NCBI GenBank assembly: GCA_965238075.1
Contig: OZ250173.1
Coordinates: forward strand, 3,200,001-3,264,000
Reading direction: 5' to 3'
Length of the DNA: 64,000 nt
DNA from: Candidatus Entotheonellaceae bacterium
Lineage (GTDB): Bacteria; Tectomicrobia; Entotheonellia; Entotheonellales; Entotheonellaceae
Under the pieces are notes generated by a model, which had not been told where the DNA came from, made no database searches, and worked only from the letters and a program-made list of their open reading frames with translations. The position numbers and the translations under genes are program-made. Shown one piece after another: positions 11,395-14,947 of the stretch. The stretch's first letter is position 1. Each line of letters begins with the position of its first letter.

Positions 11395-11658
11395 ATGACG
11401 AACGTTTACGTTGGTAATTTGCCGTTCAGTACGACCGAGGAAGAAATACGCAACATGTTCAGTGCTTATGGAGCCGTGGACAACGTCAGTTTGATCACGG
11501 ACCGGGAAACCGGGCGACTTCGGGGATTTGGATTCGTCGAGATGTCGGACGGTGCGGATGAGGCCATTGCTGCTCTTAATCAAACCGAAGTCGGTGGCAG
11601 ACGCTTGGTCGTGAATCTCGCCAAGCCGCGGGAGGAACGCCGTCCGCGGCGCTGGTAG
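11395..11658 (+). CDS. Single-RRM RNA-binding protein
   Basis: RNP2 VYVGNL and RNP1 RGFGFVEM; AGGAGG RBS. Confidence 0.93.
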   Translation: MTNVYVGNLPFSTTEEEIRNMFSAYGAVDNVSLITDRETGRLRGFGFVEMSDGADEAIAALNQTEVGGRRLVVNLAKPREERRPRRW

Positions 11659-11802
11659 CTTTGGGGCCTTCATCGGCCCTGGAATCGCGTCTCTCGGCAC
11701 CCCCGTTAAAGGTACCAGTTTTGACCTTGACCCTCGGCCAGGTCGTGTGTTAACAGTCTCCGAGTTAATGACATTTCACACTCTTCACCAAGTAAAGCGC
11801 TG

Positions 11803-11919
11803 ATGAACTTCGGCTCGACGGTTATCCAAGGTATTTCTCCCCACTGCACCCACTGCACCGGCGGTGCGTGCTGTAGCTACGAAGGCCACAATACCTTCAG
11901 ACGGGGGAGATTCGGATAA
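11803..11919 (+). CDS. Putative cysteine-rich leader peptide (38 aa)
   Basis: MNFGSTVIQGISPHCTHCTGGACCSYEGHNTFRRGRFG*; four Cys within ten codons; upstream of a terminator and the sulfite reductase. Confidence 0.7.
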   Translation: MNFGSTVIQGISPHCTHCTGGACCSYEGHNTFRRGRFG

Positions 11920-11958
11920 GCAACGTCTATTAGAAACCGATTTTTCAGGCGACATGCC

Positions 11959-12000
11959 AAGCCCACTCCCTGTTTGCAGGTGAGTGGGCTTTTTTTGTTT
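11959..12000 (+). terminator. Intrinsic terminator (attenuator) in the sulfite reductase leader
   Basis: AAGCCCACTC-CCTG-TTTG-CAGG-T-GAGTGGGCTT plus U-tract, 65 nt before the start codon. Confidence 0.88.
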
Positions 12001-12065: not shown

Positions 12066-14318
12066 ATGAGCGCTACCACCTGGAAGGAATGCCTGCAGGG
12101 TCGCCTGCCGGCGGCCTTGGAAGAGGAAATCGGCATTTTCGAGACGCAATTGACGTTGAAGCGTCAGGACAAGATTGACGACAAGATTTTTGCCGAGACG
12201 CGCCTGCGGCGCGGGGTCTATGGACAGCGCTATGACAATGGACAGCGCCACGACGGCGTGGAAACGCGGCCGTTGAGTTATCCCTGCGAGGGTCTCACCA
12301 AGGGACCGCAAACGGTGTGGGACGCGCCCGGCATGCAGCGCATCAAGATTCCCTTTGGCGGCCTCAACGCCGAGCAAATGGAGACGCTGGCCGACTTGGC
12401 CGAGGAGTACTCTGACGCCATCTGTCACGTCACCACCCGGCAGGATTTTCAACTCCACTTTGTGCACATCGACGATACCCCCGATCTCATGCGGCGCCTG
12501 GCCGCGGTGGGCATCACCACACAGGAAGCTTGCGGCAACGTGGTGCGCAACGTCACCGCCTGCCCCCTGGCCGGCGTTTGCAGCGACGAGAGCTTCGACG
12601 TCACGCCCTACGCCCACGCCTTGACGTATTTCCTCCTGAATCACAAGGATGCCCAGGATTTTGGCCGCAAGTTCAAGATCGCGTTTTCGGGCTGCACCGA
12701 CCACGCCTGCGGCTTGGCCAACATGCACGATCTCGGCCTCATTGCCAAAACGAGGGTGGAAAACGGCCAGTCTAGGCGCGGTTTCACCTTCTACGTTGGC
12801 GGCGGCTTGGGGGCCGTACCGCATCAGGCGCAGGTACTGGACGATTTTGTTGCAGAGGAAGAGATTCTGCCGTTGGCCCAGGCGGTCTGCCGGGTCTTCG
12901 CGCGGCTGGGCGAAAAGAAGAACCGCGCGCGGGCGCGCCTGAAATTTCTGGTGGCCAAGTTGGGCATTGAGGAATTTCGGCGGCTGGTGCTGGAAGCGCG
13001 CGCGATTCTGCCTCAGGACGAGCGCTGGACGCTCTACATGGACAACCTCGGCGTCACGGATGAAGCCCCCGCGCGGCCGGCTGGCGCCCTGCCGGAGGAA
13101 CCGCATCCCGAAGGGTTTGCCGACTGGATGGCGAGCAACGTCATGTTCCAGAGCCAACCCGGCTACGCCGTGGCGACCGTCTGTCTGCCCATGGGCGACC
13201 TCACCTCCGAGCAGATGCGCACCCTGGCCGACATCACACGGCGCTACAACGGCGGCCGCGCCCGCACCACGGTTGAGCAGAACATCGTGCTGCGTTGGAT
13301 CAGTCAGGCCGACCTCCCCGGCCTCTATACCGACCTTGCGGCGGTCGGCTTGGCGGAATCCGGGGCTTCCACCCTGCGCGACATCACTGCCTGCCCGGGC
13401 ACGGACACCTGCAAGCTCGGCATTTCGTCGTCCCGCGGTTTGGCGGCAGAACTGCGCCAGCGGGCGTCGGCGTGCAACGGCCAGCTCGACCCGTCCGTGA
13501 AGGACCTGAAGATCAAGATCAGCGGATGCTTCAACTCCTGCGGTCAGCATCACGTGGCCGACATTGGTTTCTACGGCGTCAGCCGCAAGTCGGACAACCA
13601 CGCGGTGCCGCACTTTCAGGTGGTGCTTGGCGGTCAGTGGACCGAGAACGCCGCCGCCTATGGCCTGGCCACCGTGGCGGTGCCGTCAAAGCGCGTGCCG
13701 GAGGCGGTGGATCGCATTACGGACTTCTACGTGGCGGAGCGGGAGCCAGAGGAAAGTTTTCAGGCTTTTATCAAGCGCACCGGTAAGGCCAAAATCCGCG
13801 CGCTCCTTCAGGATCTGACGAAGGTGCCGGCGTATGCCGAGGACAGTTCTCACTATTCCGATTGGGGCGACCCGCGCGAATACAGCCTTGGCGACATGGG
13901 CGTTGGCGAGTGCGCCGGTGAGGTTGTGTCGTTGACCGAATTTGGGCTGGCCAGCAGCGAGCGGCAGGTCTTCGAGGCGCAGGTGGACCTGGACAACCGG
14001 GACTTTCCCAAGGCATCGCAAACGGCTTTCCAGGCCATGCTGGAGGCGGCCAAGGCCCTCATTCAGGTCTACAACATCGACGTCATCAACGATGCGGACC
14101 AGATCGTCGAGGAATTCCGGCGGCGTTTTTACGATACCGAGTTGTTCCATGACCCTTACGCCGGTCCCAAGTTCGCCAATTACCTGTTTCACGCCGCCAA
14201 CGGCGGCCGGGCCGATACCAGCCCGGCGGCGGTTCACCGGCGTATCGAGGAGGCCCAGCTTTTCATCGAGGCGGCCTATTCCTGCTACAGCCGTCTCGGT
14301 CAGCGGCAGCCGGTGTAA
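12066..14318 (+). CDS. Siroheme/[4Fe-4S] sulfite (or nitrite) reductase with C-terminal helical extension
   Basis: TTRQDFQLH, RNVTACP, ITACPGTDTC and SGCFNSCGQH. Confidence 0.9.
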   Translation: MSATTWKECLQGRLPAALEEEIGIFETQLTLKRQDKIDDKIFAETRLRRGVYGQRYDNGQRHDGVETRPLSYPCEGLTKGPQTVWDAPGMQRIKIPFGGLNAEQMETLADLAEEYSDAICHVTTRQDFQLHFVHIDDTPDLMRRLAAVGITTQEACGNVVRNVTACPLAGVCSDESFDVTPYAHALTYFLLNHKDAQDFGRKFKIAFSGCTDHACGLANMHDLGLIAKTRVENGQSRRGFTFYVGGGLGAVPHQAQVLDDFVAEEEILPLAQAVCRVFARLGEKKNRARARLKFLVAKLGIEEFRRLVLEARAILPQDERWTLYMDNLGVTDEAPARPAGALPEEPHPEGFADWMASNVMFQSQPGYAVATVCLPMGDLTSEQMRTLADITRRYNGGRARTTVEQNIVLRWISQADLPGLYTDLAAVGLAESGASTLRDITACPGTDTCKLGISSSRGLAAELRQRASACNGQLDPSVKDLKIKISGCFNSCGQHHVADIGFYGVSRKSDNHAVPHFQVVLGGQWTENAAAYGLATVAVPSKRVPEAVDRITDFYVAEREPEESFQAFIKRTGKAKIRALLQDLTKVPAYAEDSSHYSDWGDPREYSLGDMGVGECAGEVVSLTEFGLASSERQVFEAQVDLDNRDFPKASQTAFQAMLEAAKALIQVYNIDVINDADQIVEEFRRRFYDTELFHDPYAGPKFANYLFHAANGGRADTSPAAVHRRIEEAQLFIEAAYSCYSRLGQRQPV

Positions 14319-14338: not shown

Positions 14339-14947
14339 ATGGAAAGTGTGAAGTACGACCTTAAATTGTTCCTCCAGGAACCCGCCGAGGTCGATCTGCA
14401 AGACTTCATCCCCGTCTTTCACGACTGGATTCAACACCAGTGCCTCGACGAGTTGCTCATTGACGTCGTGGATTATCGGCACGTTCACAACGGACCGGGG
14501 GTGATGCTGATCGCCCACGACGCGCATTACGCGATGGATATGGCCGATGGCCGCATGGGCCTCCTATACAGCCGTCGGCGCGAAACCCACCCTACCCGAA
14601 ACGCGATACAAAGCGTGACGGAGCGTCTGCAATCTGTCGTGCAATGTGCCCTGACGGCGTGTCAACTTCTGGAAGCGGAACCGTCTCTGCAAGGCCGTCT
14701 GAGGTTCCGTACCGATGAGCTGCTGTTACGGGTAAACGACCGCTTGGTATCCCCTGTCCCCGCGGCTTTCGACGACCTGCAGGCGCACTTGGGACCGGTC
14801 CTGGAAAGGCTTTACCCGGACCATCAAGTGGAGATGGAGCGCTGCGGCGGGCCGATGTCCCGTTTGGCGGTGAAGATTACGGCTTCCGACGATACGGATA
14901 TGGGGAGGCTACACAGCCGGCTGGGTCACGATGAATTGTCGCTGTAG
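14339..14947 (+). CDS. Hypothetical protein co-transcribed with the reductase
   Basis: AGGAGG upstream, 20-nt gap; FHDWIQ..LIDVVDYRHVHNGPGVMLIAH looks conserved. Confidence 0.7.
   Translation: MESVKYDLKLFLQEPAEVDLQDFIPVFHDWIQHQCLDELLIDVVDYRHVHNGPGVMLIAHDAHYAMDMADGRMGLLYSRRRETHPTRNAIQSVTERLQSVVQCALTACQLLEAEPSLQGRLRFRTDELLLRVNDRLVSPVPAAFDDLQAHLGPVLERLYPDHQVEMERCGGPMSRLAVKITASDDTDMGRLHSRLGHDELSL

Follow-up and report, generated by a model that had tools for sequence, protein, structure and literature searches.

Leaders rich in cysteine codons have been described before several kinds of bacterial genes. The uORFC-8-2 motif, found before cysS in Rhodobacterales (Brewer et al. 2021; PMC8632094), is presented in the available text as a predicted upstream ORF with tandem Cys codons at positions 14-15, accompanied by a terminator stem and a U-run. 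In mycobacteria, leaderless short ORFs with polycysteine tracts sense Cys-tRNA, and what the accessible part of that work demonstrates is occlusion of the Shine–Dalgarno sequence and not termination (Canestrari et al.; 10.1101/834739). Actinobacterial cys operons are preceded by leaders in which runs of Cys codons lie near the stop codon, and the portion of the study available to us describes no conserved terminator hairpins (Seliverstov et al. 2005; PMC1262725). The main text of a terminator survey (PMC2965389) names no Cys leader, and a further paper, as far as its available text goes, contains only a passing mention (PMC13236596). A literature search of main texts, from which subscription journals fell largely outside, returned no report of the element described below and no tested terminator-type Cys attenuator. 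Comparative surveys of attenuation have reportedly been carried out by the Lyubetsky group. Cysteine is a gap among the amino acids for which a terminator-based leader attenuator has been demonstrated, the tested case being translational, in mycobacteria.

The window analyzed here is a 64,000-nucleotide stretch of DNA from a Candidatus Entotheonellaceae bacterium, and coordinates given without a label refer to it. On its forward strand, an unannotated ORF of 38 codons (11803-11919) precedes an intrinsic terminator with a U-tract (segments 3:4, 11959-12000), followed by the gene of a 750-aa, NirA-like siroheme/[4Fe-4S] reductase (12066-14318) and by a 202-aa partner gene (14339-14947) that is probably co-transcribed with it. 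We put at roughly 0.83 the probability that this arrangement is a transcription attenuator, mediated by the ribosome and sensing Cys-tRNA, that controls an assimilatory sulfite reductase; leader and terminator would then most likely turn sulfur assimilation on only when cysteine is short. In the mechanism that we propose, a ribosome following RNA polymerase along the leader would translate the 38-codon ORF. When cysteine is plentiful, this ribosome would reach the stop codon (11917-11919) and cover segment 2, and the terminator at 11959-12000 would form. With Cys-tRNA scarce, a pause at Cys23-Cys24 (in the window possibly also at Cys15 and Cys18) would break the domain formed by segments 1 and 2, and the freed segment 2 could pair with 11966-11976 before the 3' arm of the terminator emerges, the resulting antitermination giving read-through into the genes for the sulfite reductase and its partner. 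Without translation, helix 1:2 would form and termination would be the default. Translation in vivo, the kinetics and the response to cysteine are parts of this scheme that we infer.

The leader ORF, on the forward strand at 11803-11919, is present as the initial annotation had reported it and encodes the 38-aa peptide MNFGSTVIQGISPHCTHCTGGACCSYEGHNTFRRGRFG, with Cys at codons 15, 18, 23 and 24 (11845-11874), all of them inside an inner hairpin (11843-11874). The peptide has no match in Pfam or NCBIfam, an Rfam search of the window gave no match, and a strong Shine–Dalgarno sequence is absent before 11803. An 11-codon ORF (11768-11803) that overlaps the leader start was considered for translational coupling and rejected, its ATG being missing in all five congeners; a role of the leader as precursor of a modified peptide was set aside as well, as a ligase-type neighbor occurs at one locus only. 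Short Cys-rich ORFs are not rare in this genome: of the 19,469 ORFs with 30-45 aa in all six frames, 607 (3%) have at least four Cys including a CC pair, and a short ORF with at least four Cys precedes 64 of 1,795 loosely defined terminator-like sites. The window locus is therefore not compelling alone, and the case rests on comparison.

Comparison of the orthologs identifies Cys23-Cys24 (11869-11874) as the conserved sensor candidate. Across 19 aligned family peptides C24 is invariant and C23 is found in 18, whereas codon 15 is either Cys or Arg and codon 18 is Cys, Gly, Gln, His, Glu or Arg; the expectation that the Cys codons would be conserved thus holds for the tandem pair, which is kept together with a coding signature, and fails for the first two. 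T6, T16, H17, T19 and G21 are invariant too, and each of these residues, C24 excepted, is encoded by two to four synonymous codons. When eight representatives are compared over codons 2-24, the synonymous and nonsynonymous codon differences number 191/191 in frame, against 38/336 and 29/339 in the shifted frames, in a small sample of pairs that share ancestry. The pN/pS ratio is 0.34 for codons 2-24, 0.79 for codons 26-38 and 0.13-0.22 for the enzyme. Codons 26-38 show 18% identity, and at two loci (L006 and L131) frameshifts in the tail alter the peptide and leave the G-rich strand in place. From the low pN/pS of the front and the frameshifted tail with its G-rich strand kept, the front appears peptide-like and the tail RNA-like, and by this indirect evidence, with the synonymous bias seen in frame only, the leader ORF is probably translated. 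The motif TH.T[GN]G.CC occurs exactly twice in the six frames of the genome, in the window leader and in a second leader discussed below. A profile of the peptide matches in 11 of 14 family genomes and in none of 387 others, and a global search found five further short proteins with the motif; when a 40-aa family member was taken as query, a word-index protein search returned nothing but that member.

The strong terminator that the initial annotation had placed at 11959-12000 is borne out by folding and by comparison of homologs. Its stem (11959-11991, with the U-tract running to 12000) has a folding energy of -24.4 kcal/mol (z -5.02), which none of 200 shuffles equals, and in 20 homologs 97.5% of cells are paired and six cells carry double changes, a level reached in 0 of 500 shuffles; a simple terminator scanner did not list the hairpin at 11959-11991. 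A Cys-rich leader is present in all 14 family genomes examined, 11 of them with the terminator, and each of the 23 leaders extracted has 3-12 Cys. Six genomes of one genus carry the window's version of the leader with the terminator. Locus L007 has the same version with two terminators in tandem, an arrangement also seen behind single leaders at L022 and L068. Poly-Cys leaders make up another version: those at L008 and L009 have 12 Cys and the same terminator stem without a motif of the TH.T[GN]G.CC type, and the one at L022 has seven Cys and stands before a different reductase (31% identical), whose gene opens an operon that also has cysH and siroheme genes. At three loci of one genus that includes Ca. 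Entotheonella sp. TSY1 (L010, L012 and L013), the leader is kept before the reductase without the terminator; no intrinsic terminator is found in the 196-347 nt before the gene, and two of these copies end in CCC-R-stop. No leader was seen before the reductase match of three other Tectomicrobia genomes.

The three terminator-less genomes are what one might expect if the leader sensed cysteine but acted mainly on translation or through Rho, as in mycobacteria, the terminator being secondary. The consensus fold of a set of acidobacterial leaders, in which segment 1 can pair with the Shine–Dalgarno region of the reductase gene, would also agree with such an output. We nevertheless find this quite improbable, given that leader and gene are separated by a strong, covarying terminator in the window and in 10 other family genomes, and that the 80 nt past the stop codon are only mildly C-rich in two of the three terminator-less copies. 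Attenuation of transcription at the terminator remains our preferred reading.

The pattern of conservation in the leader peptide suggests another possibility, that the nascent peptide is itself part of the sensor. Residues 2-22, lying in the exit tunnel, could create or amplify a pause at Cys23/24 in the manner of an arrest peptide, and the signal could then be free cysteine, sulfide or another thiol, with Cys-tRNA or instead of it, which would be compatible with an attenuator. The contrast in pN/pS between codons 2-24 and 26-38 and the invariant residues with their synonymous codon variation both favor this idea, as does the fact that conservation stops at the CC pair and persists in the three genomes that lack the terminator. 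On the other hand, the motif coincides in large part with RNA helices: the inner hairpin shows 72% pairing, and its wobble positions are bulged or tolerate G-U. Moreover, the poly-Cys variants at L008, L009 and L022 lack the motif and have the same terminator, an extra leader copy (L345) has H17 changed to D, and the sequences are few and related. In the mycobacterial leaders, the conserved non-Cys residues are open to the same three possible causes, according to the available text (10.1101/834739). Overall, we regard a sensing role of the peptide as unlikely, but worth keeping in view. A hybrid sensor is also conceivable, in which a peptide with T6, I8-Q9-G10 and T16-H17-x-T19-G-G-x-C-C pauses the ribosome at two or three Cys codons, perhaps with free cysteine or sulfide as the signal, and drives the intrinsic-terminator switch in most genera and a terminator-free output in the Ca. 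Entotheonella TSY1 genus. We offer this proposal tentatively and consider it doubtful; if true, it would amount to a sulfur-responsive arrest peptide, of which the literature search, with subscription journals largely outside it, found no report.

The attenuator that we favor requires mutually exclusive pairings, and these can be traced in the leader RNA. Segment 1 (11822-11842, codons 7-14) would be the 5' strand of the anti-antiterminator, segment 2 (11898-11919) is a G-rich switch strand that ends with the stop codon and can pair with segment 1 or with the 5' arm of the terminator, and segment 3 (11959-11976) comprises that arm and the loop, with the predicted 3' strand of the antiterminator at 11966-11976. 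The pairing strands named in the initial annotation (11836-11842, 11904-11910, 11898-11909 and 11966-11976) read as given there, and the 1:2 helix that it drew from them is indeed in the minimum free energy structure, but is longer than proposed, joining 11822-11842 to 11903-11919 and taking in the stop codon. The minimum free energy fold of 11830-11915 (z -2.5) contains this helix, and in naked RNA of the window its probability is 0.92-0.95. Helix 2:3 is found in the MFE of 11876-11985 with a z of only -1.2; the window's version is of the weaker sort, at -14.4 kcal/mol with 25% of shuffles as good (13% in a later test).

With RNA exposed to 11982, helix 1:2 stands at 0.92 when no ribosome is present, and folding with the ribosome masked gives helix 2:3 a probability of 0.84 for a stall at Cys15/18, of 0.72-0.75 for a stall at Cys23/24 and of 0.00 for a ribosome at the stop codon, where segment 2 is paired with neither partner. 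The value at Cys23/24 depends on the assumed footprint, since 1:2 re-forms in several settings; with pairing allowed around the ribosome, it re-forms in several homologs too. In this model, the helices switch as had been proposed, with a stall freeing the antiterminator and a ribosome at the stop covering segment 2. One step of the original scheme has to be revised, namely that a ribosome stalled at Cys would cover segment 1: with Cys23/24 in the A site, the ribosome melts the inner hairpin (11843-11874), leaves 11836-11842 uncovered and occupies the stretch between segments 1 and 2. At equilibrium, the terminator beats helix 2:3 as soon as 11992 is exposed, and therefore the switch must be kinetic. 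Attenuators are generally held to be kinetic switches. When only the RNA 3' of the ribosome is folded, 40 of 41 elements have the terminator arm more occupied with a ribosome stalled at CC than with one at the stop, a difference that is partly built in because less RNA is exposed at the stop. In 19 of 23 elements, occupancy at the CC stall exceeds the median of the shuffles, and the window, at 0.64 against a median of 0.50, is not significant alone.

Comparative support for the two switch helices depends on how they are tested. In eight lineages, cognate duplexes are stronger than swapped ones (p=0.0006 for 1:2 and p=0.03 for 2:3), and a cross-phylum cognate test of 2:3 over 11 elements gives p=1e-5, all of these p-values being overstated, as related sequences are not independent; locus L345, for which the wrong hairpin had been picked, was left out of the final permutation. 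Neither 1:2 nor 2:3 rises above shuffles when pairs are counted in a fixed register on MAFFT alignments, because the G-runs slide in register between lineages, and RNAalifold on 20 family leaders recovers the terminator and neither switch helix. The inner hairpin, too, stays within the range of shuffles in fixed-register counts. Helix 1:2 has one clean compensatory change, from U-A to G-C at columns 36/119 between L165 and L211. Covariation, which had been suggested as a check on the initial annotation, is thus evident in the terminator, whereas for the switch helices it appears in the energy-based cognate tests and not in the fixed-register counts.

Loci of reductase homologs show how far such leaders extend beyond the family. 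A Cys leader is found at 23 of 80 such loci and none at the other 57; eight of the 23 repeat family genomes, 14 belong to Terriglobia-type or uncultured Acidobacteriota and one to Anaerolineales. All 31 of the Thermoanaerobaculia/Multivorans-type acidobacterial loci among the 80 show no Cys leader just before the reductase. Additional sets gave a Cys leader at 3 of 18 further Acidobacteriota loci (one of them a repeat, with none at 15), at 2 of 29 Planctomycetota cysH loci (none at 27) and at 1 of 30 Chloroflexota reductase loci (a repeat, with none at 29). The leader peptides of these other phyla are unrelated to that of Entotheonellaceae, and the same layout recurs with such unrelated peptides in three other phyla, each segment 2 matching its own terminator arm. 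In 12 acidobacterial leaders, segment 2 and the terminator arm are 92% paired, with a fixed-register count not above shuffles. The acidobacterial leaders at L093, L096-L098 and L102-L109 start about 11-13 nt after a candidate -10 box and would be nearly leaderless.

Leaders of the window's type stand before four different genes, which are the window reductase, CysI, cysH and an ATP-grasp/siroheme operon. The second copy in the genome (G000:C1:3040652-3040840, in a region running to 3041681; L129) has 40 codons with seven Cys and stands before the APS reductase gene cysH, which scores above the TIGR02055 cut-off; this cysH copy is present in all five congeners. Since the second copy would control cysH, both reduction steps of sulfate assimilation would share the switch. 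In a metagenome (L165), the same leader lies before CysI, above the NF010029 cut-off. At L114 (L266:8139-9206, minus strand), in one of the 14 family genomes, it precedes an ATP-grasp gene that is followed by one resembling a siroheme methyltransferase gene, both named by motif recognition, and its position there suggests a cysteine- or thiol-related role for this family of ATP-grasp ligases. A metagenome scan with the stem pattern alone returned 106 matches, mostly unrelated; among the matches listed, at least six have a U-tract and a Cys leader, three of these being the same leader. The extra copy at L345 (G011:C209:1794-1889, minus strand) is followed by a terminator after about 110 nt, and an intact gene is not evident directly downstream; the genome that holds this copy is 8% contaminated. 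In the genome of the window, a Cys leader was not found ahead of sat-cysC or of the cysK-like gene.

A candidate sigma70-type promoter, picked by eye, consists of TTGACC at 11727-11732 and a weak -10 near 11750-11757 on the forward strand, and would give the leader a 5' UTR of about 40 nt. The pattern TTGACN...TANNNT recurs at a similar distance in relatives, and the simple scanner that left the terminator unlisted did not report the candidate (11727-11757). Among assembled RNA contigs, one run has a contig at 11376-11919 with a depth of 31 and the reductase gene at a depth of 7, a second run has a single contig at 11405-13000, and two more are continuous across the leader; contigs of this kind give no start, end or level. 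The gene upstream (11395-11658, forward strand) encodes a single-RRM RNA-binding protein (rbp, above the NF058537 cut-off), which adjoins the leader in this genus.

Between the end of rbp at 11658 and the leader, no U-tract terminator was seen, and this would accord with a constitutive terminator or one that ends the rbp transcript, the Cys-rich ORF then encoding an independent small protein (for example, one that binds metals or thiols) and the reductase having its own promoter. The dominance of the terminator at equilibrium and the conservation of the peptide at the protein level could be read in the same way. We consider it improbable, however, because the ORF and the terminator move together to four sulfur-related genes with different upstream neighbors, and the layout returns with unrelated peptides in three other phyla. 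In addition, the tail of the ORF is kept as a G-rich RNA complementary to the terminator arm and not as a peptide, and the reductase start codon comes only about 65 nt after the U-tract.

The regulated enzyme has the domains NIR_SIR (PF01077) and NIR_SIR_ferr (PF03460), and its closest named relatives, 91-96% identical, come from Ca. Entotheonella and Tectimicrobiota assemblies. It reaches no NCBIfam cut-off, the best scores being to NirA-family and ferredoxin-nitrite reductase models, and a NirA-like protein of Pseudomonas is described, in the accessible text, as reducing nitrite and not sulfite (PMC8092218). If the window enzyme were likewise a nitrite reductase, the leader would answer something other than cysteine demand, which we think highly improbable for several reasons. 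The best solved structure for the reductase is 1zj8 (E 1e-50), a sulfite reductase going by the title of Schnell et al. (2005). The window enzyme has RKFK where 1zj8 has RKYK and plant nitrite reductases have RKWN, and RKFK is found in 79 of 80 reductase homologs. Lys at this position, where plant nitrite reductases have Asn, is presumably the variant that favors sulfite; a literature search found no paper on the meaning of the Lys/Asn position. The genome also has sat-cysC, cysH and a cysK-like gene, and the one other PF01077 gene in it is NirB-like, as judged from the sequence; as noted above, the leader itself also precedes CysI and cysH. Taken together, the structural match, the RKFK motif, the cysH and CysI leaders and the genome context back the suggestion of the initial annotation, and strongly indicate that the window enzyme is most likely an assimilatory sulfite reductase. 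Since NirA-like proteins can be nitrite reductases, sulfite is a substrate that we infer.

The NirB-like gene (G000:C1:1300074-1302840, minus strand) has its N-terminal part in another frame, through a frameshift or an assembly error. Residues ~600-750 of the window reductase form a C-terminal extension of about 150 aa past the NIR_SIR domains, without a Pfam match and common to the close homologs. The 202-aa protein encoded next to it (14339-14947, forward strand) belongs to no Pfam or NCBIfam family, and its Atlas look-alikes are all hypothetical proteins. A homolog of it is found in 78 of the 80 reductase loci, in several phyla, and it is possibly a dedicated partner of the reductase.

The leader could serve as an annotation tag, pointing to sulfite as the substrate of a widespread and unclassified family of 750-aa reductases, and flagging the 202-aa partner protein and the ATP-grasp gene as genes of cysteine demand. 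If our reading is right, the locus offers a complete example of a Cys attenuator in about 240 nt, and with the cysH copy would form a two-gene, RNA-built Cys regulon in an uncultured, sponge-associated lineage. What appears to be new here, on sequence grounds, is a cysteine signal coupled to sulfate-assimilation targets, a mobile module found before four types of genes, and non-Cys residues that seem to be under selection.

Arrest peptides such as TnaC have conserved residues just upstream of the stall site. The same is seen here just upstream of the putative stall site, but unlike in TnaC, the sensing codons correspond to the pathway's final product, and tRNA limitation would suffice without a ligand. 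The element probably works like the trp and his attenuators, whose testable sequence features it shares save for formal covariation of the antiterminator. As in E. coli trpL, Salmonella hisL, thrL, leuL and pheL, there is a short ORF with tandem codons for the end product, a set of helices 1:2, 2:3 and 3:4, and an intrinsic terminator before the first pathway gene (see 10.1101/834739, in its available text). It differs from the trpL/hisL class in that cysteine would be sensed, the leader is long at 38 codons, nonregulatory residues look conserved as peptide, and the conserved codons for sensing are placed within the 1:2 domain, 27-32 nt 3' of segment 1 and not on it. With the mycobacterial short ORFs, as far as they are described in the available text (10.1101/834739), it shares the Cys codons, the copies before several cysteine-supply operons and some conserved non-Cys residues; unlike those leaderless ORFs, it has an apparent 5' UTR, given the candidate promoter, and a strong intrinsic terminator. 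The three terminator-less members of the family resemble the actinobacterial cys leaders in layout, going by the accessible portion of that study (PMC1262725). The terminator-based Cys attenuator put forward in the initial annotation is supported by our analysis, and the idea as such had already been predicted once, for the Rhodobacterales cysS leader uORFC-8-2 (PMC8632094). Both have two tandem, conserved Cys codons inside a stem, a terminator with a U-run and the same proposed logic, but uORFC-8-2 lies before cysS in Alphaproteobacteria and is a prediction, with no antiterminator described in the available text, whereas the element reported here has its tandem Cys at codons 23-24 and precedes sulfate-assimilation genes in Tectomicrobia.
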